This document shows, one piece after another, positions 5,723-63,965 of a stretch of DNA of 64,000 bases. Both the position numbers and the translations under genes were made by a program. The notes beneath the pieces are model-generated. The model made no database searches. It was not told where the DNA came from and saw only the letters and a list, made by a program, of their open reading frames with translations. The DNA comes from an uncultured archaeon (GTDB lineage Archaea; Asgardarchaeota; Lokiarchaeia; Sigyniarchaeales; SOKP01): contig CAYUTF010000002.1 of assembly GCA_964447495.1 (NCBI GenBank), forward strand, positions 37,288 through 101,287, given 5' to 3'. How positions within the stretch are numbered: the stretch's first letter is position 1; the number at the start of each line of letters is the position of its first letter.

Positions 5723-7962
5723 TTAAAGAATCTTTTTTAACTCTAAAATTAGATTTTTGGGATTGACTCTGTCAAATTGATAAATTTCTGCTTTTCCGAA
5801 ATCTTTAAAATTCTCCTTTATCTTATTAGCAGCAAAAGTATTTACACCTAATCCTTGAGTGGCATAACTCTTTTTTGGTTCTAACACTACAAGATGAACC
5901 CCTTTTTTAGATAAAGCCTTTGTTAATTCTTTTAATTCATTGATAATCACATTATAATCACTTTGTACTTGGGCAATTAAATCAGGATATTTTACGGAAA
6001 TGTTTGCACCACAATCAGAACAAATAAAAATTACGGGGATTATATTTCTATTCTTTAATTTTTCTGCATTAATTAATTTAAGAGATTTCTTTAATGCTGC
6101 AGCCATTGGTGTATATGATTTTCCTTCAATATTTTTTACTTTATTGGCAGCATTCTTGAAATAAACCGTTGGTTTTTGAAGAACAACTGCATCTTTTCCT
6201 CGAAAAATTATCAGACTTATTTTGTCCTTCTTTCGATAACCTTCTTTTTGTAAAGATAAAATTACATCTGTCATTTGCTTTATTACATAGTACATCGAAG
6301 CAGAGCTGTCTAATACAAAAAATAAAACCAATGGTGCACGATATTCGTATATTTTGTCCATTAAATCATACTTATTGAATTTAATGGGAAAATCAATATC
6401 AGTTTGATTATATATTGTATTTTTCAAATAATTTCTGATAGTTGCATCTAATGCGATACTTTTGGGGTTATTAATTGGAGTTCGATATGATACGTACCTT
6501 CCTTTTTGTGAGGAAGAAATTTTGATTCTTCTTCCGATTCCTCTTCCACCATAGTTAGAAACTTTCCTTTCTTTTCGAATATTATCCAAAATCGAAGTCA
6601 TTTTTTTTTCCATTTTATAGATTAATGGGAGAGCATCGAAATCATAATCTAAAAAATCAAACAACTCCTCATTAAAGGGAATATCCTTTACTTTCCATCC
6701 TCCAGCCGGTGAAGGACTTCTTTTTTTATTATCATGATATTTTGGTGCCGGTAATTTCTGTTCTTTAGTTTCTGGTACATCAACCTTTTTTGGATCTATT
6801 GATTGCCGTTTAAATTCTTTCTGAGGGGCATCGTCATATTTCAGAGGACCTTCTGTGTCTTTATTCGGTTTATAGGTATTAGTATCTTCATATGCTTTCT
6901 GTATTTTTCCATATACCTCAACAATTTTAGCTTTTATCTCTTCCGGAGTCATCTCATAGTGAAGGGATTGAATACGATGTTCAAAAACTAAATCCATAGC
7001 TACATTCAAATCATCCTCAGCAACCATCTTTCTCCCGTTAAAAGCCGCATGAGCACGGGCACATCTGATAAAGGTAATATCTGCTCTTTGAGAAAAAATA
7101 CCTAATTCATTAACAAGCCTTGATACAAACTCATACACAGTAGAAGGAATTTGAACTTCTTTCATAATTTCACGAGCATTTTTTATTTTTTTCCTTAGCA
7201 TTTCCTGTTCTTCTTCATATAATTTATGAAATTCTTTTGGATTATCATCAAATTCTATAACTCGTCTTGAAATTTCTGCTCGTAATTTCGGATCACGAGG
7301 TGCTTTGATTTTAACTTCCAAACCTAGTCTGTCAGCTATCTGTGGGCGGAGTTCCCCCTTTCCGAATCCTAATTCGCTGTGAATATAGGATCTTCGGGGT
7401 TCATACTCCCGACCAAGATAAATCGCGAGGGATGAGATACAGAGATTCCTTCTCGTTCTATTATGTTAACACCTGATGCCGCTGAATCCAATAAAACATC
7501 TACGATGTGATCTTGTAATAGATTTATCTCATCTACGTAAAGAATTCCTCTGTGAGCTTTGGCAAGCAATCCAGGATGAAGACTGCGTATACCTTCTGTA
7601 AGTACTTTATCAATAGACAAAGATCCGCAGACCATATCTTCCGTAACTCCTAAAGGTAAGTCAATTATGCGCATGCTACGCCTTGCCCTTTCCATTGTTC
7701 CATCCTTAAGTTTAACACGACATTCATCACATAATTCATCAATTTCTGCGTTTGGATCACACGAAAACGTACAATCTTTCACCACTTCTATTTCAGGCAT
7801 CATTTCTGCCAAGCTTCTAACAGCCGTAGATTTTCCTGTTCCTTGTTGCCCAGTGAGTAATACTCCAGCAATTTGAGGGTCTATAACATTAAGAATTAGA
7901 CCCATTTTCATTATGTCTTGACCGAGTATTGCTGTAAATGGGAAACTATTCCTTTTTACCAT
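5723..7962 (-). CDS. Mg/Co-chelatase ChlD/ChlI-like AAA+ ATPase with C-terminal vWA domain; two exons (7962-7392, 7359-5723), 735 aa when spliced
   Basis: Walker A GQQGTGKS, Walker B LYVDEINLL, and vWA MIDAS DSSAS..T..SD. The two track ORFs join in frame (571+1637=2208 nt) and give MNPEEGELRPQIADRLGL when 7360-7391 is removed. Confidence 0.85.
7360..7391 (-). other. Putative 32-nt BHB-type mRNA intron (phase 1)
   Basis: AUCCUAUAUUCACAGCGAAUUAGGAUUCGGAA. Central helix CCGA/UCGG, bulges AG^A and AA^A, intron stems UCCU/AGGA and AUUC/GAAU. Contains an in-frame UAG. Confidence 0.8.
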
Positions 7963-8432: not shown

Positions 8433-8509
8433 AGATTCCAGACCTTTACCCTCCGAATTTAATTTCCATTTTTTCGATTATTGTCTTAATTCTATAGTAT
8501 ACTTTCTTC

Positions 8510-8782: not shown

Positions 8783-8864
8783 TGCGCCCCCTAAATTTTT
8801 ATTAAAAGTAGGATGGAATAGGAAAAATAAGTAGTTCTATAAACTGGTTTTGATTGTAAGAATG

Positions 8865-10277: not shown

Positions 10278-10453
10278 ATTTACATTGTCTAAATACTAAT
10301 ATTATTGATCAAGTTATACTAATCCATATATTTATGTTTTTTTTTGGGAGAAATATAAAATTATTTAAATTCAAAATTTACCATTATATTATTACTTAAA
10401 GTCATATTGAAACTGATTCCAATTAAATAATATTGATTAAATTGTGATTAAAA

Positions 10454-11074: not shown

Positions 11075-11479
11075 ATCTTATCACTATAACTTGATATCTA
11101 CGTTTCTATATAACAGAAAATTAGTTAAATATTAAATTTTATACTCTTTTCTTACAAAAGAAATTTATCCTTGTTTGCCAAATAGATATTGTAGTTTCTG
11201 GTTAAGAGCTTTAACAAGTTAGATTCCATAATTGTAATAAGCATTATATCTGTAAGGTTCCAATTAATAGACATCAAAGTAGATTCTAAAAAATTATTAT
11301 AACTGAATTATTAGTAACAATAATTCAGTTCAATATTATCTTTAATTAATATAAACTTAAAACCAAGATGATATAATTATCATAGAAGGATTTTTGATTA
11401 GTGTATCAAATTAAAATGCATATTATAAATGAGTTAAATTAATATATCTTAAAAATTAACTATATCTAAACTTATCAAA

Positions 11480-12985: not shown

Positions 12986-14389
12986 ATGCCTAAAGATTCT
13001 GCTAATAACTTAGATACTGGCTATGAAAATAAAGAAGTAGAAGTCTCAAAAGAGGGAAGAATTACAATTAAATATGATTGTTTTAGAAAGATGATATCTC
13101 ATATTCTTAGATTTGCTAATGAATCTGAAGAAATAAGCCAGCAAGCACTTGGTATTTGTGTTGGCGAATATTTAAGTGAAGATAAGAGTTTCATTATCAA
13201 CGATGCTATTCCAATTACGCATGGTGATATTGTAGAACTGGGATTTTCCCAAGAAATTCATGATACTATAGAAACAATTAAATCGCAATATTCAGAAACA
13301 AACAATAAAATAATAGGGTGGTATCACTCCCATTTAGGATATGGGTTATACTTTTCTAATTCGGATAAAGCAAATAATCAATACTTCCAAAATGACGATA
13401 ATCCTTATGGATTTGGGATTGTGATTGAACAAACATTAATATCAGAGGATCAAAATTTTGGAACTGAAATTTTTAGGTTAAAAGATTTTATTAAAGGCTC
13501 AGAAAGCGATTATGTTAAAGTTCAATTTGAAATTGAATCACCAAATACTTTAAAATACTTTAAATGGGTAAAGGAACTAATTGAATCTGCTCAAAAAAAA
13601 AATACTGCAATCATTCATGAAGTTGATGAGCTCGTGAAACCTTCTCCTGAAGTACTTCAAGAGATCCCCACATCTCCACAAGATGAGCCTGAATCCACAG
13701 AAAAAGAAGGGTTTTCAATACTATATGGAGTAAAAGATGGTATAGAAAAATTTAAGGATGCTTTTCTTAGTGTTTATGAACAAGAACTGAATATATGGAT
13801 GAATGATGTTTCTGAAGATGTATTAAAAGGCTCTGAATATATACGGAGTTCTATAAATAATATTAAAGAAACATTAGCATCAGGTTTAGTGGATGTTCAA
13901 CGCATCTTTAATAGAAGTTTTACCGATATTTCAAATCTTTTTATGAAAAATATAAAAACAAGTGTTGACACACGTTTAACCAATCAAATTGAGCTTAAAA
14001 ATGAAATCGAATCAAACTTTGAAGAGCAATTAAGTTATCTTTTTGAGAATTTAGAAAAAGAAATACGTGATATCACGAATTTAATTGAAGAAAAAATAAC
14101 AACTATTAAAAATGAATTAGATAAGATCACCCAAAATAATAACGTTATTGAACAGTCATTAAATCAGAATAACGAACTTTTGAATAAAGTTTATCAAGAG
14201 TCCGATAAATTATCAAATACAATTATTCAACATATCGAAAATTCGACTAAAGCATTTGAATTAAAATTATTTAATGAAATCGAAGATTTCTCATCGAAAA
14301 TGAATCCAAATAAAGAAACTTATCGTGAAATCGAAGATTTAATTGAAAGACTTCAAAAAGTAATATCAAGTTTAAGACAAGTAAAATAA
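12986..14389 (+). CDS. JAB1/MPN domain protein with coiled coil, catalytic Glu replaced by Gln
   Basis: QQALGICVG at the E-V-x-G position and GWYHSHLGYGLYFSNSD. Starts directly after the previous stop (TAAATG). Confidence 0.8.
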   Translation: MPKDSANNLDTGYENKEVEVSKEGRITIKYDCFRKMISHILRFANESEEISQQALGICVGEYLSEDKSFIINDAIPITHGDIVELGFSQEIHDTIETIKSQYSETNNKIIGWYHSHLGYGLYFSNSDKANNQYFQNDDNPYGFGIVIEQTLISEDQNFGTEIFRLKDFIKGSESDYVKVQFEIESPNTLKYFKWVKELIESAQKKNTAIIHEVDELVKPSPEVLQEIPTSPQDEPESTEKEGFSILYGVKDGIEKFKDAFLSVYEQELNIWMNDVSEDVLKGSEYIRSSINNIKETLASGLVDVQRIFNRSFTDISNLFMKNIKTSVDTRLTNQIELKNEIESNFEEQLSYLFENLEKEIRDITNLIEEKITTIKNELDKITQNNNVIEQSLNQNNELLNKVYQESDKLSNTIIQHIENSTKAFELKLFNEIEDFSSKMNPNKETYREIEDLIERLQKVISSLRQVK

Positions 14390-18821: not shown

Positions 18822-21821
18822 CTATTTAATGAGTTTCATGGGCTTTCCATGATGTTTTGGCACAGGTACATTACCACATGAAGCACCCATCCAGCAAACT
18901 AACTGATCTCCTTCCTTATGCATGGGTTTTCCGCAATGCATAGGCACATCTTGCTCAAGTCCACATTCTTCACATTTTAATTTTGACATACTTTTATCAT
19001 TCTCTTTTTTTTTATTTAGTTCAATATATTTTTCAGGATTGTTTTTAAATTCTGCTCTACATGATTCACTGCAAAAATAGTATTTCTTCCCATTTAATTC
19101 ATACTCAATCCAATCTTCTGGCTTCCCTTTCATGCCACATACAGGATCAGTAACTAATTCAGATTCCTCACTCATCATCTGCATTAATTTAGGATTCATG
19201 TTATCATAGTTTTTAAATTTCTCAGGCTCTCTTTTGAAATGTGCTTCACAATTAGGACTACAAAAATGATATAATTTATCCTCATATACGTATTCAATCG
19301 CACGGCGGGGCTCAATTTTCATACCACATACAGGATCAACAACCTTTTCTTGGGATAATAATATTCGTTCCTCTTCAACTTGTAATGGAGTCTTTGGTTC
19401 GTATCTTTTCAGAAGCAGCGCATTTGCTACTACTGAAACTGAACTGGAAGCCATAAAAACCGCTGCTAAATAGGGAGGCAAAAAGAATCCAGTGACATAA
19501 TATAAAACTCCTGCTGCAATTGGTATACCTATTAGATTATATATAAATGCCCAGAATAAATTGGTTAACATTTTCTTGTAGGTTTTTTTAGATAAATTAA
19601 TCGCAGCTACAACATTTCTTAAGTCTCCGCGCATTAAAACGATATCTGCTGTTTCTATAGCTATATCTGTACCTGAACCAATCGCAATCCCGACATCAGC
19701 TTGAGCCAATGCAGGAGCATCATTGATTCCATCCCCGACCATTGCAACTACTGCTTTTTTATATTCCTGCAATTTTTTAATAGTCTCGGCTTTTTCGTTA
19801 GGAAGAACTTCTGCTAAGATATTATTTTCTTCTATTCCTAGTTGCTTTCCAATGCTTAAACCAGTTTTTTTATTATCCCCAGTTATCATATAAATCTTAA
19901 GTCCCTTTTCCTTTAATTTTTCGAGTGTATAGAATGCCTGGTCTTTGATTTTATCTGAAATACCAATAACTCCCCGTAATTTATTGTCAACACTGATTAA
20001 AATTGAAGTCACTCCGTCTTCTTGGAATTCATTTAATTTTGAATGGTATTTATCTATGGAAACGTTATTCTCAAGCATTAATTTTTCATTACCGACAATG
20101 ACCTCTTCATCATTTATTTTTGCGATGATTCCTTTTCCCGGTTTCGCATCAAATTCATTAGGAGTTTCTAAGACTAATCCTCTTTGATTAGCTTCCTCTA
20201 TTATTGCACGAGCTAATGGATGTTCAGAACCCATTTCAGCACTACCCGCAGCGAATAAGACCTTTCGTTCGTCAAATCCGTCTCCATTTAATTCTTTCTC
20301 AGTGAAAATTTTTGAAACTCTTGGTTTCCCGACAGTTAAAGTTCCAGTTTTATCGAAAACAATGGTGTTAACCGAATTAATTGCTTCCAATGAGTCTCCT
20401 CCTTTGAGTAAGATCCCATTTTCCGCTCCTTTCCCTGTTCCCACCATTATAGCAGTTGGAATTGCTAAGCCTAGGGCACATGGACATGAAATTACAACAA
20501 CAGAAGTAAATACAAGTAAGGATAATTCTAAACGTTGGGAAAATTCCATATCGTTAAATGCTATAAAAAACCAATATAAAAACGCCCCAATAGCAATTAA
20601 AACTACAGTTGGTACAAAATAATTGCTAACTTTATCGGCGAGTCTTTGTTTTGCCGCCTTTTTACTTTGTGCTTCCTTTACAAAGTCAATAATTTGGAAC
20701 AGAAGAGTGTCTTTCCCTATTCGTTCAGATACTACATTTATTAGCCCAGTTTGATTCACTGTTGCCCCAATTACTTCACTATCAACTTCCTTTTTTACAT
20801 ATTGACTTTCACCGGTAATCATCGACTCATCAATTTTAGATTTTCCTTTTACTACTCTCCCATCGACAGGGATTTTCTCACCGGGTCTCACAATTAAAAT
20901 ATCTCCAACTTCAATCTCTTCTATAGGAATCTCTAATTCTTTTCCATCTTTTAACAACGTTGCTGTCTTAGGTTGTAAGCCAATAAGTTTTTTTATTGCC
21001 TCAGATGTTTGCCCTTTTGTCTTTTGTTCAAAATATTTCCCAATTAATAGGAATGATAAAATCATTGACATTGCTTCATAAAATGTTTTTCCATCAATGA
21101 AGAAAGTTGTTAATATTGAATAGACTAAGGCAGTAGTAGTTCCTAACGCAACTAAAACATCCATATTTGTTGATTTATTTTTTAATGATTTGTATGCTCC
21201 TATAAGAAAAAAAGAACCTGCAATACTATAATTGCCTAAAGCTAAGAAAAAAAGTACAATATTCCTAATAAAAGATTCTGCTACCCACCAGCTTATTGGA
21301 GTAATAACCAGAGTAAAACTTAAAGATATCAATAAGATTCGAAGCCTATATCTCATTTCTTTTTTATGTTTTTCAATTTCCTTATCAATAGCCCCTGCTG
21401 CTTTTTCGATATTATAACCCAATTTCTTAATATTCGTATATATTTTATTTTCATCAATTTTTAATTCATTGAATTCAATGAATAATTTAGATGCCACAAA
21501 ATTTCCTCGAACATTATATATCCCCTCAATTAATTTAACATTACTAATTAGTGAATTAAAAGCATTCTCATCAAGGGGATCATTAATTTTAATATCCACT
21601 TTTGCTAAAGTTGATTTATAACCTAAATCACGAATAGCTTTATCAAATTCTCCATAATTTGTTAATTTATCATTATATTCTACTGTCGCTTCCTCATTCG
21701 CGAAATTTACCACGGAACTAGAAACTCCTGGCATATCTTTAAGTTTTGTTTCAATTTTTAAAGCACATGATGCACAAGTCATTCCGCCAAGCTTGATTTT
21801 AATTTTTTCTGGAGATTCCAG
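18822..21821 (-). CDS. copA: Cu(I)-translocating P1B-type ATPase with HMA, two YHS domains and a Cys/His-rich tail; probable CTG start at 21821
   Basis: GMTCASC, TGES, CPCALG, DKTGT, GDGIND, YN and MxxSS Cu(I) signatures, and two DPVCGM..FCS..C YHS units. The ORF-track start (21782) cuts the first HMA strand; a GGTGA RBS precedes the in-frame CTG. Confidence 0.9.
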
Positions 21822-26561: not shown

Positions 26562-28014
26562 TCACTCTATGAAAATATTTCTAAATCTATTTATAACTTT
26601 TTCAATTATGTTTTTTAACTTTTTAGGACCAATCTTAATTATAATAAAAAGTGTAATGATTAGGATAACAATAGATAAAGTAATCATTATTCCAATAAGA
26701 AACTTGAAGATTAGAGTATAATATATCGATGCTAGTGTTATCTGATAGAGTGTTGTTATAAAACCTATTTTGAAAAACTGTTTAAAACTGATAGGACGCT
26801 TATTTTGTTCAGCTATTTGGACTACTAATATGTTATCCCCAAGCGGTGTAAGATTATCTCCCCAATTAGCTCCAATAGCTAGACAAAAGAAAAATTGATG
26901 TCGCATAGCTGATGGGTAGTTATTTGAAATGGTATTTATGACAGGGATTAACAATTTAGTTATAGGAATATTATCAATAGCACTGCTTAAAAATGAAGAT
27001 ATCCAGAGAATAATAATGAGTTGAGAAAATATATCTCCTCCAGAGAGATTTGACATTATTTCTCCCAGGAATTGAACAACTCCCAGGATATCAAGAGCTC
27101 CAGCAATAATAAATATCCCCAAAAGATAGAGGATTAACTCAAAATCTATTTTAGAAATAATTTGTTTTGCTTCAAGTCTACTAATGATTATTAAAAATAA
27201 TGCCATAATTAACGCAATTATATCAGTAGGTAATATTGATGTAGGAATAATAATAAACAAGATAAATACAAGGATTAACGTAAATAGTGATTTTAATAAC
27301 AACATTTTATTAGGTACAAAATTCCATACATTAAATTCTCTTAAAATTTTAATACCTTCTTGGGGGATGTCTAGGGATTTCCTAAATATAAAAATAAAGA
27401 AGACAAGTGTTAAACAAAAATTATTAAAGAAATCGTTCCAACATTCAAAAAGAAATCAATAAATTGAATATCAGCATAAGTACTAATTAATATATTAGGT
27501 ATAGATGAAATCGTGAAAAAAGTTCCACCAATATTGACTAAAATTGCTTGAGTTAGTATATAAGCAGAAGGATTTACATTTAAAATACGAGAAACTGTTA
27601 TTGTCAGAGGGATAAGTATAATAACAGTCAGAATGTTGTTTAATATCGCAGAAATAAATATCGTAATTAAACAAAAAATTGACATTAGATAAAGTGGCTT
27701 TCCTTTTGATAGTTTAATTAAGTTTAAAGCGATATATTGAAAAAGCCCTGCTTCATTAGAAATTGCCACAATAAGCATCATGCTTATAATTAAAATAAGG
27801 GAGTGAAGATTTACAAAACCTTCACTTTCAGTTCCAAATAATAGTTCAATGATTACATTAAAGTTCATTCCTTCTAAGAACGTTCATACAAAATAAACAA
27901 TAACTGCTCCTGATAAAGCTGCTATTGCTCTATTTAATTTTTCTGTGATTATAAGAATTATTACTCCAATGAAACATCCTAAAGCTATAATTATACTAAG
28001 AATTTTATAATCAC
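26562..28014 (-). pseudogene. SLC13/ArsB/NhaD-family permease, disrupted
   Basis: Homology runs from ~28014 (DYKILSIIIAL..EKLNRAIAAL). There is no in-frame start, an in-frame TGA at 27884-27886, and a 1-nt frameshift in a T-run near 27410. SAILNN and SSAIDNIP motifs are present. Confidence 0.7.
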
Positions 28015-39753: not shown

Positions 39754-41454
39754 TTAAAAATAATACTTTCTTACTTCTCTGATTACTAAATTAATCAAAT
39801 CACTATCTTTCTTGATAGGATATAAGTTCACTTTTTTAGAGAGGTCCTTAAACTTATTTTTAGGAATTTTAGAGGATCCAATGAAAAACCCAACAACATG
39901 ATGCCCTTGGTCTGTTAAAGTTAGGAACAACTTTTTGGAAGCATTCCAATTATAAATTCCAAAATCAGTAATAATAAAGACCAAAACATTATTAGTGGCA
40001 ATTTTACATTGATTAGAAATTGCTTTCAGTGGGAGTTGAGTGCCTCCACCTTGATATCTCAGTAAAGTTTCTTCTGCTAAATGATAATTTGATGTCCAAT
40101 TGCATGTATCTGCTATGTTAGAAAAATTAATTACGCTAAATTTTATTGCTTTTTGCGCAGCAAAGTGAAGTGCCGCAAAAGCTGCAATTAATGCAGTATG
40201 ATAAGTTCCTGTGGGATGCTTTTTATTATAATTCCAATTCATTGAACCTGAAGAATCAATAACAAGTAAAAGATCTGGTATTTGTACTTCACGAATTATT
40301 CCATCATGTTCTCTCTTTACCCATTTTCGTGTTGTAATATTTGGTATAATAATTGGACTGTTTAGTAGAGTTTGAGTTATATCTAATTCCTCTATAGGAT
40401 CCCCTAATCGCCATGTTTCTGGAAAAATGGGCAATTCTTCTCCCTTTTTCTCTTCATATATTTTAATTTGGATTAAATCTTTAGCTTTTCCTCTATACCA
40501 TGTAGCTAAAGGATTCAAATCTAAGAGAATTCCTGCTTGACTCGCAGGAGCTCCAAATTCTGAATAAGGTGTTTCTTTTGCAAAATCCTCTGCTTTTTGA
40601 GTTAAAGTATCCTTATTATCGGGTTTTAATTTATCAATATTTCTACTTTCGATGGGATTATCCATTATTTCTATAATATCTTCTGGAATTTCAATATACA
40701 TATTTTCTTCTGCAGGAGATTTCTTATTAACGAAATTTTTTCTTTTTTTGTGTTTGATGTCGACTAGATTAAATGTTACATTTATTAATGGCTGTAAAAT
40801 TAAAGCGAGTTTTGATACTTTTTTCTCCCATAAAGATTCATCTTCAAATTTATTAGAGATAATCTCTTCTGCCCTCTCTGCTAGAAGATTTAATTCATCA
40901 GGTATTTTACTCTTTAGAAGTGTGATTTTTAACAATTTTTCATAAACACAAAAAAGAAATATGGAGAAATCACTCATTCTTTTATGATGAGCTTCTAATA
41001 TATGATTGTAAGTGGTTTTAAGTTCCCAAGATATAAGTTTAGGGTGTTTTGCGTATAACTTTGTATCAATAATTAAATCGGAAAACAAATTTACTACGAT
41101 TGGAGCAAAAGTTTCATTAATATGTTTCATTGCTGCTTTTAATAACTTAGCATTAGTGAATCCATCATAAGGAATGATCTGATAATGAGATACTTCGTGT
41201 AATGTAATAGCATAAAAAAAATTAATATAATCGTCATCGTTTAAAAAAACCGGACAATTTGCTAAATTCATTGTAATTTGCCATCTATGAATAGGATCTA
41301 TATAAAATCCTTCTCTATTTGAATAATCAAATACGAAATTTGGTTCACTTAAAGGAGGAAAGTAAAATTCAGCAAGAGTTTTATTAAATGCTACTTTGGC
41401 AAATGTTATGACTTTTTTCTCTTTATCGTTTAAGTCTCTATTTTTAGCGCTCAT
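39754..41454 (-). CDS. vWA domain protein with N-terminal HExxH metallopeptidase-like motif
   Basis: LHEVSHY; MIDAS DSSGS..GGT..ITD. Confidence 0.8.
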   Translation of the reverse strand: MSAKNRDLNDKEKKVITFAKVAFNKTLAEFYFPPLSEPNFVFDYSNREGFYIDPIHRWQITMNLANCPVFLNDDDYINFFYAITLHEVSHYQIIPYDGFTNAKLLKAAMKHINETFAPIVVNLFSDLIIDTKLYAKHPKLISWELKTTYNHILEAHHKRMSDFSIFLFCVYEKLLKITLLKSKIPDELNLLAERAEEIISNKFEDESLWEKKVSKLALILQPLINVTFNLVDIKHKKRKNFVNKKSPAEENMYIEIPEDIIEIMDNPIESRNIDKLKPDNKDTLTQKAEDFAKETPYSEFGAPASQAGILLDLNPLATWYRGKAKDLIQIKIYEEKKGEELPIFPETWRLGDPIEELDITQTLLNSPIIIPNITTRKWVKREHDGIIREVQIPDLLLVIDSSGSMNWNYNKKHPTGTYHTALIAAFAALHFAAQKAIKFSVINFSNIADTCNWTSNYHLAEETLLRYQGGGTQLPLKAISNQCKIATNNVLVFIITDFGIYNWNASKKLFLTLTDQGHHVVGFFIGSSKIPKNKFKDLSKKVNLYPIKKDSDLINLVIREVRKYYF

Positions 41455-41800
41455 CCCTATTAACTGAGTTATATTTATGATATTTTGTAGTTAAATCATT
41501 TATTCTTATTATAAGAGGATATTTATTTTTTTTATTCCTTAGACTTATATAAGCAATAATATAATAATAATTTATAATTACAATAACTCTTAGAACTTTT
41601 AAATTTAAAAGGTTTGCAATAAGATTATCCAATCCAAATTTAATAATAAAAGATTATAGAAAATTTCTCTTTAAGATCACCTATTAAAATTGACATAATA
41701 AAAGTAGTAAATAAGCAATCACTTGAATTTGCCCATTTTGCGAGTATTTGGAAGAAAAAGCCATCCATGGAAATAAAGAATAATAAAATATTGATGTGTT

Positions 41801-42487
41801 TTGGTAATTTTAGATATGTCGTATGTTTATATGAAAGCATTGGAAAAAAAGGCGAAAAAATATGATAAAGGAATAAGATTTTTAACGTTAGGACGACTTC
41901 CGAAAATCAAAAGTTATATTTCAGATACTATAGTTCAGAAGAATGATACTATTTTAGATATCGGCATGGGCACGGGAACATTCGCAATTTTATGTGCAAA
42001 AAAAGGAGCAAATGTTATTGGTATTGACAATTCAGAAAAAATGCTGGAAGTGGCAAAAAAAAATATTGAAGTAAAAAGATTAATGCATAGGATCCAAATC
42101 ATTAAAATGCCAGTCATTGAATTAGATCACCAATTTTCTGATAATTCATTTGATAAAATTACTGCTATATTAGCATTTAGTGAACTTTATCAGGACGAGC
42201 AAAATTTTTGCTTGAAACAGATAAATAGAATATTACGCGATGATGGTGAATTTATTTTAGTTGATGAAGTTAAACCTAAAAAAATTTTGAAAAAAATTGC
42301 ATATCTTATTATTAGACTACCTTTAGTGTTTATCACATATCTAAAATCTCAATTAACCACTAAATCTTTAAAAAACATTGAAGAGAGACTAAAAAATTAT
42401 AATTTTTCTTTAATTGAAGAAAAATATTTTTTATTAGATACTTTAAAATTATTTAGGTTGAAAAAGAGGATTAACACTGAGATGTGA
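41801..42487 (+). CDS. Corrinoid-protein-associated SAM methyltransferase (CpaM-like)
   Basis: LDIGMGTG..GIDNSEKM; overlaps an HgcAB-like gene. The start may be MSYVYM (41816). Confidence 0.7.
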   Translation: MVILDMSYVYMKALEKKAKKYDKGIRFLTLGRLPKIKSYISDTIVQKNDTILDIGMGTGTFAILCAKKGANVIGIDNSEKMLEVAKKNIEVKRLMHRIQIIKMPVIELDHQFSDNSFDKITAILAFSELYQDEQNFCLKQINRILRDDGEFILVDEVKPKKILKKIAYLIIRLPLVFITYLKSQLTTKSLKNIEERLKNYNFSLIEEKYFLLDTLKLFRLKKRINTEM

Positions 42488-43584
42488 GAAAAATGAGGAT
42501 AAAAGATAGAGTAAAATTATTTTTTAGCTTTTTTTTTAGATGGACTGGTTTCCCTATAGAACCAACCCTTATAAAAGTTGGAAACCCTACAAATGAAAGT
42601 CCAGTTCTGCTTACATGTAATTTCATTTTAACAGTTAGGCGAGTTTTAAAGGCAATTAAAAAGCTTGACTGCTTTTTATTAATCGCTCCTTCCAAAGGAA
42701 TTAATGTATGGTGTGGAGCGTGTGGAGATGATTTTCATACAGATTCAGTCTTATCAATTATAAAAACCAGCGGGATTAACGATGTTGTGTCTAATAGGAC
42801 TTTAATTTTACCTCAATTAAGCGCTCCTGGAATAGATCCAACAATTATTAAAAAAAAATCGGGATGGACAGCAATATTTGGACCAGTTTATGCAAAAGAT
42901 ATTCCATCATTTATTAATAGTAAACTTAAAAAATCAGAGTCACAAAAAATAGTTAGATTTCCGATTTCTCATAGAGCTGAAATGGCTACATTATATTTCT
43001 CTATTTTAATTCTTTTATTTTCAATTATCTTTTGGATTGTTGCCATTTTTTTATCAATCTTGAATCTAATACTTTATTTAGAGACCGTCTCAATTTTAGC
43101 GATTATTATTTATGGCTCTATGCTGATTTTACCCAGTATTCCCTTTAAATCTGGAAAAATAATGGTATGGATTTATGAGGGTTTTGTTCTTCTCTTAATA
43201 GTACTATTCAATCTATTCATAATGGTTAGTATTTTTCATCTAATATGGAACATAATCTTTTCTTTTTTAATTTCAATGATTATGGCAGAAGATTTCCATG
43301 GGTTAACCCCAATTTATAAAAGTGAATTAGGTGAAAAAACTTGGAAGAAAGGTAATGAAAAAATGAGATTTTTATTTGGTGAATACAAATTACAGCCATA
43401 TGGTCAGATTGCTATTATGAGAGATAAATGCATTGGATGTAAAGTATGTTTAGAAGTCTGTCCGAGAAGTTTATATGTATATAATGAAATTGATAAAAAG
43501 GTTGATTTAAGAACTCCTGAAAAATGCATAAATTGTAATGCTTGCGTTAAAAGATGTTTAGCCCAATGTCTTGAAATAAAGTAA
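42484..43584 (+). CDS. HgcAB-like fusion: corrinoid-binding domain, TM helices and 2x[4Fe-4S] ferredoxin
   Basis: SPVLLTCNF, GINVWCGACG cap-helix-like motif, LILPQLSAPG, FGPVYAKDIP, 4-5 TM segments, CIGCKVCLEVCP and CINCNACVKRC. Confidence 0.8.
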   Translation: MRKMRIKDRVKLFFSFFFRWTGFPIEPTLIKVGNPTNESPVLLTCNFILTVRRVLKAIKKLDCFLLIAPSKGINVWCGACGDDFHTDSVLSIIKTSGINDVVSNRTLILPQLSAPGIDPTIIKKKSGWTAIFGPVYAKDIPSFINSKLKKSESQKIVRFPISHRAEMATLYFSILILLFSIIFWIVAIFLSILNLILYLETVSILAIIIYGSMLILPSIPFKSGKIMVWIYEGFVLLLIVLFNLFIMVSIFHLIWNIIFSFLISMIMAEDFHGLTPIYKSELGEKTWKKGNEKMRFLFGEYKLQPYGQIAIMRDKCIGCKVCLEVCPRSLYVYNEIDKKVDLRTPEKCINCNACVKRCLAQCLEIK

Positions 43585-43661
43585 GTATTAATGAAATACA
43601 TTGTCATATGCTCACGTTCATAATATATGTTGTATTAATCTAAAATAAAAATGTTCATTCG

Positions 43662-44234
43662 ATGGTTATAATGCCTAATTCAAACAATACAAAAATGAAT
43701 GATGGGGAATTACCACGCTCTGGATCGGTTATGTTTAATTTTCATTTTCAAAATGAAGAGGATAAGAAAAAGGTTTTAAAGCGATGGCAAAAAATAAATA
43801 AATATTTAATGATTCCATTGTATAGAGTGAAATTGCTACCGTTATTAGGATTTGGGAAAATTTTTTTGATTTTAAAGACAAAAGGAAGGAAAACGGGAAA
43901 AATAAGAAGAACTCCATTAGAATATAGACGATACAACGATACTATTACCATTTTTGCTTCAAGAGGGGAAGATACAATGTGGGTAAAAAATCTGCGTTCA
44001 CATCCAGAGGATGTGTCAGTAATGTATGGATTCCATCATTTTAAACCTCAAATAGAATTTATTGAAGATAAAAATCAAAAACTTACAATTATGAAATGGT
44101 ATGTAAAGAATTTTGGAAAAGCAGCAAAAATGCTTTTTGGATGGGATCCAAAAAATGATGATCCTGAAACAATTGATTTTACAAAATTAATAAATTTGAT
44201 ATCTATTATCTTACTTCATAAAATTAGTAAATGA
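43662..44234 (+). CDS. Deazaflavin (F420)-dependent nitroreductase-family oxidoreductase
   Basis: LILKTKGRKTGKIRRTPLEY..ASRG..WVKNLRSHP. Confidence 0.8.
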   Translation: MVIMPNSNNTKMNDGELPRSGSVMFNFHFQNEEDKKKVLKRWQKINKYLMIPLYRVKLLPLLGFGKIFLILKTKGRKTGKIRRTPLEYRRYNDTITIFASRGEDTMWVKNLRSHPEDVSVMYGFHHFKPQIEFIEDKNQKLTIMKWYVKNFGKAAKMLFGWDPKNDDPETIDFTKLINLISIILLHKISK

Positions 44235-44255
44235 ATTATTAAAGTAGTTGAAAAA

Positions 44256-46043
44256 TTATCCTTCTTTTTCAATATATTCTAAATTTTCTAAAAGAGATCT
44301 TAACTTTAAGGCATTTGCACCTCCAGATACCTGTATATTAACTATTGAATCCTCATCCGTACCAGTAACATTGGTTTCGATTAATACCTTTTCTGCTCGT
44401 ATCTGTTTTGTTTGCCGTTTACTTAATGCTTCTTTTAAGGGTTGATCCAAATTTGGAAATTCAGCAGCAATTTCTACCCAGACTTCTTTTTGATGAGAAT
44501 ATTTAAACGTAAAATCTGAGACTGTTTGTTTATAAAGTTCTTGATCGCACCAATTAATTAGATAGGCTCTATTAGGAAATTCAAGATCATCAATTAAATT
44601 ATTCCTAATTTCAGATAAACTTTTAATATCTCCATTCTTCACAGCGATATCTATTTTTCTAGCTAATTTTGAATACTTTTTTGCTTTTACTGATTTTATA
44701 AAAGAGATCAGATCAAATTTAACTATTAAATCGTTCATTGCATAATTATCGAGCATTTTTAAATCATTTACTTCTGGAGTTCCATCACGAAAACGAGTAG
44801 CTATTTCATAACAGGGCTTTCGATTAATATATCGTTTCTTAATTTCTTCTAAAACATGTTTAGTAAACTCATATTTATTACCCCAGAATGGTGCTTTCTC
44901 CAATTCTCGTGATGTATATTTCACGCGATGGGATATTATGTAAGGTGCAATTGTATTTACAATATTAATATCAACTATATTCAAGTTTAATAACCATGCT
45001 AAAGCTTTAGAATATCTAAGAAGATCTTTTGCTACTCTTACACTTAGAATGGAATCAATTTTATTGCAAACGCTTTGTTCGGTGTTGAAATGACATCCAG
45101 AACACAATCCAGAACTGGGTTTGATATTTTCAGAATTCCCCTTATCTACGCGAGCACATAAAGTATATTCTCTTATTATTGCATGAATATAATTATTCAC
45201 TTCTGTTTCGAATTTCATCTTGTTTACATGGTACCAAATTTCCATGAGACCATCAATATGTAAGATTTTAGGTACTTCAATCAATTCATCATATCCAGAA
45301 TATTTTTCGTCCTTTCCTGTAAGTATTAATGATAAATCATTACTTGTTGGCATTGAGATAGGAACTGATATTCCAAAACGATCTAGAAACGGTTGAGACA
45401 GTTTTCGAATAATTTGGAAATCAAATTAAATTTCGAATGTCCCAACATCTTGTGGATTTATAGTAGCATAAAGCGTGTATTTTTCTATAGTATTAATGGC
45501 ATCGTAATATTTTACTTTTCCTTCAGCTAATAAGGATAAAAGAATATCTTGGGCATATGGTGTCAATCTGTTGACCTCATCGATAATTTTCCAAAATCCA
45601 GTTACAAATTGCCTCCAAACGACTACTTCTTCCCCGTCTTTCATTAACTTTCCTAATTTTAAAGTCCCTGTAAGTTTTTCTTCTGTGAGTTGCGGTTAGC
45701 CGTTAAACGCTGAGAGCGATTAACTATGACCCCTTACAATGGAACTTTCAATTTGATCCAATGTCATACCAGTGAACATCCTACCTAATAGTTTAACTAA
45801 AGTAGTTTTACCCCCACCATGTCCTCCAACTAATAACATAGCAGAGTTTGGTACTAGCGCATTTAAAACACACATAGATAAAATTTCAGGCAATGTATTT
45901 GTTATAAGCTTCTTCTTATCCTCATTAAAATATTTAACTTCCAAATTTTTAGAATGAACAAATAATTGATTTGCTTGGATGAGGTTAATAGTGTTCCATA
46001 CTTTTTTTCTTAATGATTCTTCTTCTCCTAATATATTTGACAT
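44256..46043 (-). CDS. MoxR-like AAA+ ATPase; three exons (46043-45726, 45695-45432, 45401-44256), 575 aa when spliced
   Basis: Walker A GGHGGGKT and Walker B IIDEVNR. The three track ORFs share one frame. Removing two 30-nt inserts (318+264+1146=1728 nt) gives RGHPQLTEEKL and NPQDVGTFELSQPFLDRFG. Confidence 0.85.
45402..45431 (-). other. Putative 30-nt BHB-type mRNA intron (phase 0)
   Basis: AUUUAAUUUGAUUUCCAAAUUAUUCGAAAA. Exon stem GGGACA/UGUCUC, helix UUCG/CGAA, bulges AA^A and AA^C, 7-bp intron stem. Contains an in-frame UAA. Confidence 0.82.
45696..45725 (-). other. Putative 30-nt BHB-type mRNA intron (phase 0)
   Basis: AGUUAAUCGCUCUCAGCGUUUAACGGCUAA. Helix GGUC/GGCU, bulges AU^A and AA^C, stems GUUAA/UUAAC and CGCU/AGCG. 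Contains two in-frame UAA. Confidence 0.82.
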
Positions 46044-58969: not shown

Positions 58970-59680
58970 GTGAGTAATACTAAAGTAGAAATTGGGAAAA
59001 AAAATGCTGCTATAAAAGCGATTGATGATAATATTAAAGAGAATTTAGTTATAGGAATAGGCAGTGGCTCTACAATTGTATACGCAGTGAATCGAATTGG
59101 TGAATTAAATAAAAAAAGAGAATTAAATCTTAAATGCATACCCTCTTCATTTCAAGCTCGCCAATTAATCATAGATAATAATTTGAATTTAGTTTCAATG
59201 GAACAATATCCTGAAATCGATATAGATTTTGATGGTGCTGATGAGATTGATCAAAATCTTAACCTTATCAAGGGAGGTGGAGGATGCTTAGTTCAGGAGA
59301 AAATTTTAGCATCTAATTCGAAAGAGACGATAATTATAGTAGATTATAGAAAAAATTCAACCCATTTAGGAGAAAATTGGAAAAAAGGTGTACCGATAGA
59401 AGTTATTCCAATGGCATTTAATCCTTTATTAAAAAAATTTTCAAAGATGGGAGGTAAACCTATACTAAGAATGGCTCAAGCAAAAGCAGGACCGCTCGTA
59501 ACTGATAATAATAACTTCATTATTGATGTTAATTTTGGAGTGATAAAGAATCCATTAGAATTAAATAAGCAATTATTAAATATTCCAGGAGTAGTAGATA
59601 CGGGATTGTTTATAGATTTGGCTACAAAAGTCTATATTGGACAAGAAAATGGAGAAATTCTCATCTTAAAAGGTAAATAA
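58970..59680 (+). CDS. rpiA: Ribose-5-phosphate isomerase A
   Basis: GIGSGST, DGADEID, KGGGG..QEK and PGVVDTGLF. Confidence 0.95.
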   Translation: MSNTKVEIGKKNAAIKAIDDNIKENLVIGIGSGSTIVYAVNRIGELNKKRELNLKCIPSSFQARQLIIDNNLNLVSMEQYPEIDIDFDGADEIDQNLNLIKGGGGCLVQEKILASNSKETIIIVDYRKNSTHLGENWKKGVPIEVIPMAFNPLLKKFSKMGGKPILRMAQAKAGPLVTDNNNFIIDVNFGVIKNPLELNKQLLNIPGVVDTGLFIDLATKVYIGQENGEILILKGK

Positions 59681-59705
59681 AAAAAGAAAAAGAAAATACT
59701 TATTA

Positions 59706-62700
59706 TTATTCAAAATAAAGTGTTTTTCCGCAATTTGGGCAGAAATTTTTAGGACTTCCTATATTATATCCACAATATGGGCAATAAAAGCCAATTCTGT
59801 ATCCTTGAGATCCAGAAGGCTGTGTTTCATATGTTGTGTCTTGTTCCGGAGTCGTGTAATAATCTTGCGGATAGTATTCTGATGATTCTGCTGATCTCTT
59901 AGATCTTCTCGACTTTACTACTAATGTGATGATTACAATTGCTCCTATACCAATAATTAAACCCACAATTATTAATATTAGTACTAAATCTAATTGAAGT
60001 GAAGCTCGTATTGATAAAAGTATTAGGAAGTCTTCAGATCCACCTTCACTATCAATAAGAGTTATTAATAGTATCGCCAAGTACCCCTCATCTGTGGAAG
60101 TATCATAATTCGTTGCAGTAGAAATATATTTTATTCCCGAAATTGAATTATAAGCAATGGTATATGGTATAACAAATGTTCCTTGATGTGAGTTTGTTCC
60201 AGATTGATAACTGAGCTCTTTAAGAGGTAAAGACCTTGGATATATTATGTTTATATACCCATCAACAGTAGTGGAGACTATAAATAAATTTACTGAAATT
60301 CTCATATTTGCACTATTGATATCTTCATAAGAAACTGAATCAGCTGCAGCAACACTGAAATCTAAAGAAGAGCCTTGAGAAACAGGAATTAAATAAGAAC
60401 TTTCTCCTTCATAGGTTTCATCGAAAGCAAACGTTGTTTGACCATCTATGGTAATAAAAGAACTCGATTCTATAAATGTAGGAGGATTATTCCTCACTTC
60501 AAATGGAAAACGAGGAGAGTAAGGATTGGTATAATTTGTAGCTGTGTTTTTAGAAATAATATAAAATATCGCAACTCCAGAAGGATCCGACAAAGAAGGA
60601 TCAAAATCATATCTATATGCACTAAAAGGCATATTATAGGTCATAGAAAAGGTTTTATTCACCGTTTTTTTGGTATTGTAAAATGAATATGAATAAATTG
60701 AGAGATAAGCATTCACATCATATAAAGTATTATCTAAATCAGCGAGAAGCCACGTAGAGTCTCCTAGTTCTCGATATACTGGACTGGATGAAACATCTAA
60801 CGAATTAATCGATGGCATAGAAGCAGGATTGTAGTATAAAATTTTGGAATTCTTTTGATATATAGTTGAACCTAGAGTGAAGTTTAGAGAAATTGTATAA
60901 GGAGAATAATTTGTACTTGGTAGAGAAAAAGTGGTATTGTAGGCGATTCCATCTTCGATTGATGTTGTTGTAATTGTTTCAAAGTATCCAGTATTACTGA
61001 TAATAATACTTAAATTAGTATTTAATATACTCGAATCAATAGGCTTTCCTAGTTCTTTATCTTTGATATATATGCTCAAATTGATTTGGGCATTAGCAGT
61101 TCTTTCTGAATCGAGACCTATTTGAATAGAGATGTCGTCAGCGGAGAAAAAATAGTCCATTAAATTTTGAGCTAATTTTGCATGATCTAATTGATAATTA
61201 GTTGACGTATAAAATTCACTTGCCCAATATAAATCTCCGAAAGCAACTAATTTTCCTCCAAGATTAGTTTCGTTATACGTAGCAACTACTGTATTACCAT
61301 CGAGTGAAGCGATAGATTCAGATTTTACTCCTACATCAAACGTGTTTCCATAATTCCATTGAAATTTATCAACACCATTAAAAATTGGAGAAACACTAAG
61401 ATCAGTGACACTCTGAGAATTTATGCTAGCACCTATACCCAACCAATTCTCATTATATACATTTTCTTCATTTATTGTGATATCAGAGCCCAAAATCGAA
61501 AAGAGTGTATTTATATTATCGATACACAAATCTTGATATCTTGTACCTAAAAATAAGATATTTCCGCCATTTTCAAAATAGCTATTGAGATTTTTCATCT
61601 CCTCCAATGTATATGGCAAGATCGGATTCTGTAATACAATAAGATCATACTGGGCTAAACGTTCTTCGGTTAAGAGCGAATTATCGTAATCAACATTGTA
61701 ATATGGAGTCCAATATTGTGCGCTATAATCTACAGAGATATTTAACTCAGTCAAATCCTTCATGAAAGCATAAAAATCCATTTGATAAAATGAAATTTCG
61801 GGAAACCAATCATTTAACCCATGATAGGATTCCATTAGAACCTTATATTCAGGAAATTTGATATCGATGGTTATTATTATTGAATCGTATACGTTCGCTC
61901 CAATTGTGAGATTCATTTCAAAACTTCTTATACCGGGGTTCGCTCCCTGCTCAATTTCTATATCTAAGATTAAAAATTTAACATTTTCTTCACTAAAGGT
62001 AAGGGTAGTATGATCTAAATCTAATTTTAAACCGTTAATTTTGTTTGGAATGTTCACATCGTAAGAATTTGCTTTTCCAGAAATCACAGTAATATTAAAC
62101 GATTGGGCATCACCTGGAAAATTCAATAAATCAAATGGTTTAAGTGGAATTATATCTGGAAAGAATTTAGCAGTATCATTTACATCCAATGAAATACTAT
62201 CTAGATATTCTAAAGATGCTGACACATTTATTAAACCCGCCCCAAATTTAAGAGTATCATCACTATCATAGTTTGATAATGGTTTCGCTCCTTCTAATAA
62301 CGCAATCCTAGCCGTTTCAGGTGTAATTGAAGGGTATGCTTCTTTTAAAATGGCTAAGGCTCCAGCAACGATAGGACAGGCCATACTAGTTCCACTTAAA
62401 GGAATATAATCACCATCGTCAGGAAAATCAAAATAATCTCCAATATATCGTTTTTCATCTGAAATTACTGAACCTGGTGCCTCAGTAGAGATTACATTAA
62501 CACCAGGTGCAACTACATCAGGATAACCTAAATAAGTTAAAGTCGGACCCCAACTCGTAAAAGAAGCTAGGTAATTATTTTTATCTGTCGCTCCAACAGC
62601 AATTACATCATTACCCGAGGCAGGTGATCCCCCTGTAAGATAATCTGGTCCGGAGTTCCCTGCAGAAGATACTAATATGACGCCATAATCATTAGCTACT

Positions 62701-63695
62701 TTTGAGATAGTAAGGGTCATTGCATCATTGAAATCTGGCAACCCTCCACCAAAACTCATAGAAATGATATCTGCTCCTGGTCCTCCGCTTAACTCCGGCT
62801 TTACAGCCCATTGAATAGCAGCAATAATATCTCCATCACTTAAACCTGTAAAATTTCCTGCTCTAGCATTAATTAACGAAACACCTGGCGCGACACCTCT
62901 ATATTTCCCACTTGAAGAAATACCCGTGCTACCAATCAGACCAGCAGCATGGGTTCCATGACCATAATCATCATTTGAATTAAATAGGTCTCCTGTCACA
63001 AAACTTTCATTGGCAACGATATTTAAATCAGGATGTTCATATATACCCGTATCTACTACAGCTACTCTTACACCCGTGCCATCGTAAGTTAAATCATCAG
63101 CACCTATTGCAGGGATCCACCAATTTGGATAATCATTAGCATTTAAGCTACTAGAATTCGGAATTCCATCAGAATAATCTGGATTTTTATAAAATTGGGA
63201 TTTACATATTTTAGAAATTTCTGTTACTCCATTAAGAATCTCTTGTTTTGAAATTAATTCTGCAGATTTACATATTAAATATACTCCAGAGATGATATTA
63301 TAATTGCTAATAATCTCATAAAACTCGAATATATTATCAATAATATTGATTCGATCTTCCTTAGCTATTCCCTCTTTAAAAAGTATGATTACTTTTACCC
63401 TATCTGATGCTGATTCGTATCCTAAAGAATAATTTAAGAGAAATTCTGTGAGGGATTCATCAAAGATGGTCACTTCTTTGTTATTATTATAATTAGAATC
63501 AATATTAATTTCATCTTGGTCTGTTGAGATTAACTTGGTTAAATAATCATAATCTAGGTTAACATTCGTAGCAACATTCTTGTCAACGTTTAAATTGTAG
63601 CTATAGGCTATCAATGGGATGCTTAGTAAATTGATTAGGATGAATGTTAAGATTAAGGCTTTTTTGTATATTTCGAAATATTTCATAGCTATCAA
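59706..63695 (-). CDS. Membrane-anchored S8 subtilase with GATase-like domain, C-terminal TM and cytoplasmic zinc ribbon
   Basis: Signal peptide; triad DTG/HGT/GTSM; TM segment LVLILIIVGLIIGIGAIVIITLVV; tail CPYCG..CPNCG. Confidence 0.88.
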   Translation of the reverse strand: MIAMKYFEIYKKALILTFILINLLSIPLIAYSYNLNVDKNVATNVNLDYDYLTKLISTDQDEINIDSNYNNNKEVTIFDESLTEFLLNYSLGYESASDRVKVIILFKEGIAKEDRINIIDNIFEFYEIISNYNIISGVYLICKSAELISKQEILNGVTEISKICKSQFYKNPDYSDGIPNSSSLNANDYPNWWIPAIGADDLTYDGTGVRVAVVDTGIYEHPDLNIVANESFVTGDLFNSNDDYGHGTHAAGLIGSTGISSSGKYRGVAPGVSLINARAGNFTGLSDGDIIAAIQWAVKPELSGGPGADIISMSFGGGLPDFNDAMTLTISKVANDYGVILVSSAGNSGPDYLTGGSPASGNDVIAVGATDKNNYLASFTSWGPTLTYLGYPDVVAPGVNVISTEAPGSVISDEKRYIGDYFDFPDDGDYIPLSGTSMACPIVAGALAILKEAYPSITPETARIALLEGAKPLSNYDSDDTLKFGAGLINVSASLEYLDSISLDVNDTAKFFPDIIPLKPFDLLNFPGDAQSFNITVISGKANSYDVNIPNKINGLKLDLDHTTLTFSEENVKFLILDIEIEQGANPGIRSFEMNLTIGANVYDSIIITIDIKFPEYKVLMESYHGLNDWFPEISFYQMDFYAFMKDLTELNISVDYSAQYWTPYYNVDYDNSLLTEERLAQYDLIVLQNPILPYTLEEMKNLNSYFENGGNILFLGTRYQDLCIDNINTLFSILGSDITINEENVYNENWLGIGASINSQSVTDLSVSPIFNGVDKFQWNYGNTFDVGVKSESIASLDGNTVVATYNETNLGGKLVAFGDLYWASEFYTSTNYQLDHAKLAQNLMDYFFSADDISIQIGLDSERTANAQINLSIYIKDKELGKPIDSSILNTNLSIIISNTGYFETITTTSIEDGIAYNTTFSLPSTNYSPYTISLNFTLGSTIYQKNSKILYYNPASMPSINSLDVSSSPVYRELGDSTWLLADLDNTLYDVNAYLSIYSYSFYNTKKTVNKTFSMTYNMPFSAYRYDFDPSLSDPSGVAIFYIISKNTATNYTNPYSPRFPFEVRNNPPTFIESSSFITIDGQTTFAFDETYEGESSYLIPVSQGSSLDFSVAAADSVSYEDINSANMRISVNLFIVSTTVDGYINIIYPRSLPLKELSYQSGTNSHQGTFVIPYTIAYNSISGIKYISTATNYDTSTDEGYLAILLITLIDSEGGSEDFLILLSIRASLQLDLVLILIIVGLIIGIGAIVIITLVVKSRRSKRSAESSEYYPQDYYTTPEQDTTYETQPSGSQGYRIGFYCPYCGYNIGSPKNFCPNCGKTLYFE

Positions 63696-63831
63696 ATACC
63701 AATAGAGCTATTTATTTTTAATTTTAATAATTCAAAAACCATAATTTTTTTTAAAAACTGATTATTATTAAATTTACAGCTAACTTTCTTTATGTGTTTT
63801 GAAATGTTGATATATAGCTGTTATTAACATT

Positions 63832-63931
63832 GGGGCTGTGGATTAGTGGAAGATCGTTCGCTTGGCATGCGAAAGTTAAGGCACTTTTACCTAACCGTAA
63901 GAGGCCGGGGGTTCAATTCCCCCCAGCTCCA
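63832..63931 (+). tRNA. tRNA-Ala(GGC) with a 28-nt intron at position 43/44; CCA not encoded
   Basis: Acceptor GGGGCUG/CAGCUCC with G3:U70, anticodon arm UUCGC-UUGGCAU-GCGAA, T arm GGGGG-UUCAAUU-CCCCC. The mature form is 72 nt after intron removal. Confidence 0.93.
63874..63901 (+). other. tRNA intron with BHB motif at non-canonical site 43/44
   Basis: AGUUAAGGCACUUUUACCUAACCGUAAG. Helix UGCG/CGUA, bulges AA^A and AG^A, stem GUUA(A)GG/CCUAAC. Confidence 0.88.
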
Positions 63932-63965
63932 CTCTATCTTATTGTTAAATGATGAGTGAGAAGAA

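Follow-up and report, generated by a model that had tools for sequence, protein, structure and literature searches.

The 64,000-nucleotide stretch of DNA analyzed here, called the window throughout, contains a tRNA-Ala(GGC) gene interrupted by 28 nt that begin and close much like a 30-nt insert in a protein-coding gene of the same window. From this resemblance a sequence-only reading had proposed that introns might move between tRNA and mRNA targets. The locus thus raises the question whether both inserts are introns and, if so, whether their likeness goes back to a common origin. The features on which the answer depends are listed in Table 1.

Table 1. Genes, introns and the processed RNA segment discussed in the text, with their positions in the window.
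Feature	Positions	Strand	Basis
ChlI/ChlD-like gene (Mg-chelatase-type AAA+ and VWA), two exons	5723..7962	-	Pfam
ChlI/ChlD-like BHB intron, 32 nt	7360..7391	-	Frame and motif restoration, BHB fold, RNA skip
MoxR-like AAA+ ATPase gene, three exons	44256..46043	-	Pfam AAA_5 and AAA_3
MoxR intron 2, 30 nt	45402..45431	-	Homologue alignment, BHB fold, orthologous introns
MoxR intron 1, 30 nt (the mRNA intron of the sequence-only reading)	45696..45725	-	Homologue alignment, BHB fold
Intron 1 plus exon 2 segment, 294 nt	45432..45725	-	Circular or permuted RNA junction in metatranscriptome X20
tRNA-Ala(GGC) gene (exons 63832-63873 and 63902-63931)	63832..63931	+	Rfam RF00005
tRNA BHB intron, 28 nt, position 43/44	63874..63901	+	Rfam insertion and BHB fold

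The tRNA-Ala gene was missed by ARAGORN and found by Rfam, where it matched RF00005 with 56.1 bits (E 2.2e-09) over the full model from 1 to 71, with all 28 nt aligned as one insertion 3′ of the 3′ strand of the anticodon stem. Removal of the insert yields a complete canonical tRNA-Ala with the anticodon GGC, a G3:U70 pair and a normal T-arm; CCA is not encoded. The intron sequence on the plus strand is AGTTAAGGCACTTTTACCTAACCGTAAG (that is, AGUUAAGGCACUUUUACCUAACCGUAAG) and has the layout A-GUUA-A-GG-CACUUUUA-CC-UAAC-CGUA-AG. Its strand CGUA forms a 4-bp central helix with the exon strand UGCG, flanked by two bulges of 3 nt each (AA|A and AG|A), an inner helix of 4 + 2 bp (GUUA/UAAC and GG/CC) and, beyond one A.G mismatch, an outer helix of 6 bp. 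The BHB fold has an energy of -11.9 kcal/mol but is not the MFE structure. Sliding the cut by 1 nt (A|A...G|A) gives an equivalent sequence, and the BHB register favours position 43/44. The insert is therefore a near-canonical BHB motif at a non-canonical site.

The insert with which it had been compared lies in a gene for a MoxR-like AAA+ ATPase, which contains two introns. The spliced product of this gene has 575 aa, the length of most of the 120 homologues listed, nearly all of which cover 100% of the query. Intron 1, the reverse complement of positions 45696-45725, reads AGTTAATCGCTCTCAGCGTTTAACGGCTAA (that is, AGUUAAUCGCUCUCAGCGUUUAACGGCUAA), with the layout A-GUUAA-U-CGCU-CUC-AGCG-U-UUAAC-GGCU-AA and in-frame TAG and TAA stops. 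Its central helix is GGUC/GGCU and its outer helix is weak. Removal of intron 1 produces ...SIVRGH|PQLTEEKL..., which is invariant and ungapped with respect to 11 aligned homologues. The intron is absent in 80 of 80 related genomes and also in homologues at 82-86% protein identity.

Removal of intron 2 (AUUUAAUUUGAUUUCCAAAUUAUUCGAAAA) likewise produces a stretch that is invariant and ungapped among the 11 aligned homologues, namely GTFE|LSQPFLDRF. In both MoxR introns all four positions of the central helix pair with the upstream exon, and the 3-nt bulges are in register, giving an excision of exactly 30 nt. Orthologues of intron 2 interrupt the same codon boundary in two Promethearchaeota MAGs, L052 (isolate AMARA_5S) and L113 (Loki_b31), with 80 and 67% identity to the window copy, respectively, over all 30 nt. 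Compensatory changes are found in the central helix, where the exon changes from TTC to TTT together with a change from CGAA to CAAA in the intron, and in the hairpin, where an A-U pair is replaced by G-C. In the intron 2 alignment, which comprises three sequences only, 89.5% of the cells are paired, compared to at most 58% for slid structures.

A third mRNA intron was identified in the ChlI/ChlD-like gene. Two ORFs in different frames hold the two halves of the AAA module of this protein, with Pfam assigning Mg_chelatase/AAA_5 to the upstream and AAA_lid_2/VWA to the downstream ORF. Removal of the 32 nt, which have the layout A-UCCUA-UAUUCACAGCGAAU-UAGGA-U-UCGG-AA and the central helix CCGA/UCGG, brings the two halves into one frame and recovers the motif NPEE|GELRPQ. 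Spliced in this way, the gene encodes 735 aa, and the N-terminus of the product aligns without gaps to the ChlI structure 6l8d (E 7.6e-100). Among the 120 homologues listed, 114 have a length of 732-736 aa, five of 716-726 aa and one of 750 aa, and the best of them is 87% identical; no full-length ChlI/ChlD-like protein above 87% identity was found in the protein database. Precise removal of the inserts thus restores conserved proteins in both coding genes, and the central helix is fully paired (4/4) in each of the three mRNA introns. The two host genes are members of the MoxR/ChlI AAA+ clade. It was also observed that MoxR intron 2 (GTFE|LSQPFLDRF) and the ChlI/ChlD-like intron (NPEE|GELRPQIADRL) lie about four codons or less from the homologous position, within the same conserved motif.

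These three mRNA introns, together with gene boundaries, are what a strict scan of the whole window leaves (all four central-helix positions paired, an inner helix of 4 bp or more and no fewer than 80 codons on either side). A permissive scan combining a BHB motif with ORF bridging gave 1270 matches, almost all of them AT-rich gene boundaries, and inspection of adjacent-ORF junctions had at first revealed MoxR alone. Gaps between tblastn HSPs did not detect any introns, because BLAST aligns straight through inserts of 10 aa. Introns in the alignments of relatives were detected by searching for '*' and gaps, and a junction-spanning tblastn filter, which proved too loose, reached the genes with homologues among the fetched loci. 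As an additional observation, a CitMHS/ArsB-type transporter gene (26565-27868, minus strand) consists of two ORFs in different frames, split around 27375-27455, and contains a 41-nt BHB-like candidate at 27415-27375; the split could reflect a frameshift or an additional intron.

Processed RNA was found for both coding genes. In metatranscriptome X20, a 224-nt contig of at least 99% identity joins position 45724/5 back to 45431/2, which means that it goes back 294 with an ambiguity of 1 nt. Read on the sense strand, the contig shows a ligation between the 3′ end of exon 2, where the 5′ splice site of intron 2 is predicted, and the first nucleotide of intron 1. The 5′ end in this contig is at 45725/45724, the predicted 5′ splice site of intron 1, and the 3′ end is at 45432/45431. 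The contig represents a circular or permuted RNA composed of intron 1 and exon 2, and it shows that MoxR RNA was cleaved at both predicted 5′ splice sites and joined again. An endonuclease together with a ligase would yield such a 294-nt RNA if the weakly closed 3′ site of intron 1 were cut late. Neither the exon1-exon2 junction nor any other exon-exon junction of MoxR was seen among the metatranscriptome contigs, and additional RNA runs were not listed for 40-50 kb.

For the ChlI/ChlD-like gene, a 257-nt contig from metatranscriptome X22 (97% identity to the window) lacks precisely the 32 nt of the intron, which are retained in the DNA runs X4 and X5. The skip might stem from an intron-less allele in the strain of 97% identity; this strain was not present in the DNA runs. 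The tRNA-Ala gene was not covered by any RNA contig from the three metatranscriptomes, and its transcript would presumably be spliced as well.

The tRNA-Ala gene was also examined in related lineages. The same tRNA-Ala exons were found in 50 metagenome contigs (L001-L050), ten of which carry the gene without an intron. The 43/44 intron is present in only four contigs (L002, L007, L008, and L015), in all of them identical at 28/28 nt including the loop. The remaining contigs contain unrelated introns of 20-34 nt in the D-loop/D-arm (after approximately nt 15, 19/20, and 21) or in the T-loop, some of the genes having two introns, one in the D-loop/D-arm and one in the T-loop. Clearly, orthologous tRNA-Ala genes in this lineage hold unrelated introns at about five sites, or none, and introns are gained and lost fast. 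While L008 is identical to the window, the syntenic flanks of L002, L007, and L015 are 73-74% identical to it (compared over 59135-63943), and a syntenic relative of similar distance (L027/L028) has a T-loop intron instead. The identity of all copies had suggested a very recent gain of the tRNA intron, an idea rejected when the comparison of flanks gave an identity to the window of only 73-74% for three of the four contigs. A 28/28 match between such flanks therefore implies that the tRNA intron is not new and that its sequence is tightly conserved, by either strong selection on the intron sequence or a recent exchange of the tRNA gene. Rfam revealed no extra tRNAs in the same-lineage loci. 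The proteins of the window are closest to those of Lokiarchaeota/Promethearchaeota MAGs, and its DNA is found at 100% identity in salt-marsh metagenomes.

The features that the sequence-only reading had pointed out, namely the AGUUAA start, the UAAC closing strand, the similar size of 28 and 30 nt and the host-specific 4-nt strand, are all real in the sequence. Rfam, folding and homologue alignment also bear out its placement of the tRNA insert at the non-canonical position 43/44 and its view of both inserts as introns, which are of the BHB type. The agreement comprises 10 of 28-30 nt, 4 of which are forced by pairing. Over the whole length, the tRNA intron and MoxR intron 1 are 67% identical, with unrelated introns of different classes showing a median of 50% and a maximum of 71%; for homologous introns, values of 67-80% (intron 2 orthologues) and a median of 69% (T-loop intron orthologues) were obtained. 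The hairpin interiors, GGCACUUUUACC and UCGCUCUCAGCGUU, align with a score of -5, compared to -3.1 +/- 2.3 for shuffles (p = 0.86). The exon-pairing strands differ as well, being CGUA in the tRNA and GGCU in the MoxR intron, and CGUA cannot pair with the MoxR exon strand GGUC.

As a match between two introns, the shared start is nominally unusual. At intron composition, the chance of sharing the first 6 nt is 4.4e-4 per pair, and the tRNA intron and MoxR intron 1 are the only pair with more than 3 shared leading nt among 344 between-class pairs. An AGUUAA start is found neither in the other two mRNA introns of the window nor in about 30 distinct introns of orthologous tRNA-Ala genes. Since UAAC is the complement of GUUA, and since all four window introns have A as the first and AA or AG as the last nucleotides, about 5 informative nt are left, corresponding to p = 1.6e-3 per pair and, for the 6 pairs, to about 1% before post-hoc selection. 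The introns of this genome considered here are these four, all located within the window.

Enrichment of the common frame against shuffled controls, proposed earlier as a check, was determined within the window, where the motif is not enriched. AGTTAA-N8-24-TAAC occurs 8 times versus 5.04 +/- 2.61 expected, at least 8 matches being reached in 18 of 100 shuffles, and AGTTAA alone occurs 73 times versus 74.5 expected. In 1.66 Mb, consisting of the window and 130 related loci, the frame followed by 4 nt that pair with the upstream exon was matched 9 times, by five copies of the tRNA-Ala intron, by MoxR intron 1 and by three non-introns; no further intron with the AGUUAA..UAAC frame was present in the window or the related loci. 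Exact searches with the hairpins of both introns in viral contigs (IMG/VR) yielded no hits.

Taken together, we consider it likely that MoxR intron 1 and the intron at tRNA-Ala 43/44 are independent BHB mini-introns of a Lokiarchaeota/Promethearchaeota-type Asgard archaeon, with a likeness that stems from shared architecture and chance. Both follow the same minimal design, with a single bulge nucleotide first, then a short hairpin, then 4 nt pairing with the end of the upstream exon, and finally two more bulge nucleotides. A splicing endonuclease, presumably EndA, would cut in the two 3-nt bulges, and a putative RtcB-type ligase would join the exons. The likeness would then be composed of the common architecture and the size of roughly 28-32 nt imposed by it, of the A-rich bulges in all window introns, and of a coincidence in 4-5 AU-rich bp at the base of the hairpin, the genome having a G+C content of 30% (about 30% in the window). 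Two observations speak against independence and chance, namely the nominal rarity of an identical start over 6 nt (4.4e-4 per pair) and the presence of both introns in one lineage, in which introns are clearly gained and lost fast.

A BHB intron that moved between a tRNA and an mRNA gene, keeping the base of its hairpin and adapting the strand that pairs with the exon, would account for the shared A-GUUAA...UAAC, the similar length and the nominal p of about 4e-4 to 1e-2, and it would fit the high intron turnover in the clade, where protein genes are demonstrably targets. Such common descent is nevertheless improbable. The hairpin interiors are without similarity (p = 0.86), the guide strand would need replacing at all 4 positions but one, and no further family members were found in 1.66 Mb of relatives or in IMG/VR. 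Moreover, MoxR intron 1 is young and its putative donor sequence-static, so that a recent copy should be near-identical, which MoxR intron 1 is not. The proposed movement between tRNA and mRNA is therefore not supported, in view of the unrelated interiors, the differing pairing strands and the lack of any further gene interrupted by the frame in 1.66 Mb. A variant of this idea assumes, for this Lokiarchaeial lineage, an active process that seeds BHB mini-introns of about 30 nt into the transcripts or genes of both tRNAs and proteins. Both introns would then derive from one source, with the A-GUUAA...UUAAC foot as the retained end of a donor or template and with interior and pairing strand replaced on integration; we regard this as a doubtful proposal with little probability.

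Somewhat less remote, but still unlikely, is convergence, in which the machinery or the folding of the pre-RNA would favour an A in the bulge and, after it, a closing G-C pair with an AU-rich stack (GUUA/UAAC) at the 5′ cleavage site, so that unrelated introns would come to carry the same few nucleotides there. All four window introns indeed start with A and end with AA or AG, and the perfect conservation of the tRNA intron, loop included, at 73-74% flank identity would on this account reflect strong selection on the intron sequence. However, the helices adjacent to the bulge are quite different in MoxR intron 2 (UU-UAAUUUG), in the ChlI/ChlD-like intron (UCCUA) and in the D- and T-loop introns of relatives, which means that any sequence preference is weak or absent. 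Finally, the inserts might not be introns at all but inactivating insertions or assembly artefacts in pseudogenes, their likeness then going back to a small insertion element. Every insert contains in-frame stops or shifts the frame, and a spliced MoxR exon1-exon2 read was not found. Yet the same inserts recur in independent DNA assemblies at 5-18x depth, every one of them can be excised to the nucleotide with restoration of invariant motifs, the BHB of intron 2 shows compensatory changes, and the RNA junctions are exactly at the predicted sites. This explanation is already largely refuted and extremely improbable. Two independent BHB mini-introns remain the preferred reading of the resemblance.

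With respect to known systems, the tRNA-Ala intron shows no essential difference to the non-canonical BHB introns of archaeal tRNAs (Marck and Grosjean, 2003; Sugahara, 2008; PMC11291895). As in these, a short insert lies outside position 37/38, its removal restores the cloverleaf, and two 3-nt bulges around a 4-bp helix mark the boundaries; the 43/44 site in tRNA-Ala(GGC) is limited to few related lineages. High loads of tRNA introns have been described for other Asgard lineages (PMC11291895; Valentin-Alvarado, 2024). The Asgard EndA is an (alpha-beta)2 enzyme with an L1 loop, and among EndA types only (alpha-beta)2 and epsilon2 cut non-canonical introns (PMC5829648). The host phylum is thus known for both intron-rich tRNA genes and an endonuclease of this type, and the assumption that an intron at 43/44 implies an endonuclease of broad specificity agrees with these published data (PMC5829648). 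The window itself contains no gene for EndA or RtcB according to Pfam searches of 49 of its 50 called ORFs and of the remaining one, MoxR exon 3, within the spliced product.

For protein-coding transcripts, BHB introns have been reported from crenarchaeal cbf5 pre-mRNA (Watanabe, 2002; Yokobori, 2009, PMC2738675) and from the 5′-UTR of Haloferax HVO_1309 (PMC7714728), with cbf5 described, in the papers found, as the sole case within a coding sequence (PMC7714728; PMC2738675). Protein-dependent BHB splicing of mRNA is common to these cases and the introns described here, and the interruption of a conserved coding sequence with sporadic gain and loss among relatives is shared with cbf5. In contrast to cbf5, the hosts are two AAA+ ATPases of the MoxR/ChlI clade from the Asgard phylum, one of the genes has two introns, and the introns are of minimal size (30-32 nt). 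A limited literature search found no report of BHB introns in protein-coding genes of Asgard archaea.

The translocation proposed among the tRNA introns of Thermoproteales had been put forward as a parallel for an exchange between tRNA and mRNA. Varied non-canonical positions and rapid gain are indeed found in both groups, and in both the BHB requirement might define the possible targets. Transposition in Thermoproteales, however, was argued from introns of very similar sequence found at different sites (PMC4090602). There the similarity extends throughout the introns, whereas here 10 of 28-30 nt agree, similarity along the length is lacking (p = 0.86, with an identity within the range of unrelated pairs), and multiple copies were found neither in the window and the 1.66 Mb of related loci nor in IMG/VR. 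The parallel to a mobile family of the Thermoproteales type is consequently not supported.

A link between tRNA and mRNA introns would be important if true, but it lacks support in the data at hand. Of greater value are the three mRNA mini-introns with RNA evidence, together with the rapid intron turnover in the orthologous tRNA gene. BHB introns in coding sequences were previously known essentially from cbf5 of Crenarchaeota, and three of them with support at the RNA level are now found in two Asgard AAA+ ATPase genes. This suggests that in the archaea most closely related to eukaryotes mRNAs too are substrates of protein-dependent splicing, with a quick turnover of introns, and BHB intron gain thereby becomes testable in a lineage relevant to the origin of eukaryotes. 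In practical terms, genes of this kind are fragmented by gene callers or, as with the tRNA-Ala gene and ARAGORN, overlooked.

Several further observations were made in the window and its relatives. Between MoxR and a gene encoding 566 aa (39754-41454) lies a block on the plus strand (41455-44255) that encodes a methyltransferase, a CdhD/Fer4 protein and an F420H2-quinone-reductase-like protein. The block has no match in the alignment of L051 to the window, and in L052 the homologue of the 566-aa gene directly follows MoxR; in L131 the methyltransferase and CdhD/Fer4 genes adjoin MoxR, as they do in the window. Single in-frame stops at conserved positions of otherwise intact homologues were seen in L085 (~6684-7292), L109 (~19627-20571), and L110 (~8284-8925), for example in a second MoxR-like copy (VVWR*FMTNFWK) and in a gene resembling SufBD; pseudogenes, errors in sequencing or recoding could account for them.

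The 773-aa ORF at 14875-17193 had no Pfam match. A Roadblock/LC7-domain protein and three JAB/MPN-domain proteins are encoded at 3689-4420 and 9330-14386. Such genes are of the eukaryote-signature type and typical of Asgard genomes. Lastly, the intergenic region of about 145 nt (63687-63831) between the start of a subtilase-like gene (63686, minus strand) and the tRNA is conserved across lineages far above the flanking genes. The idea of a further RNA gene was rejected, this stretch being the divergent promoter region that the tRNA and the start of the 1326-aa subtilase gene have in common, and it probably holds bidirectional promoter elements.
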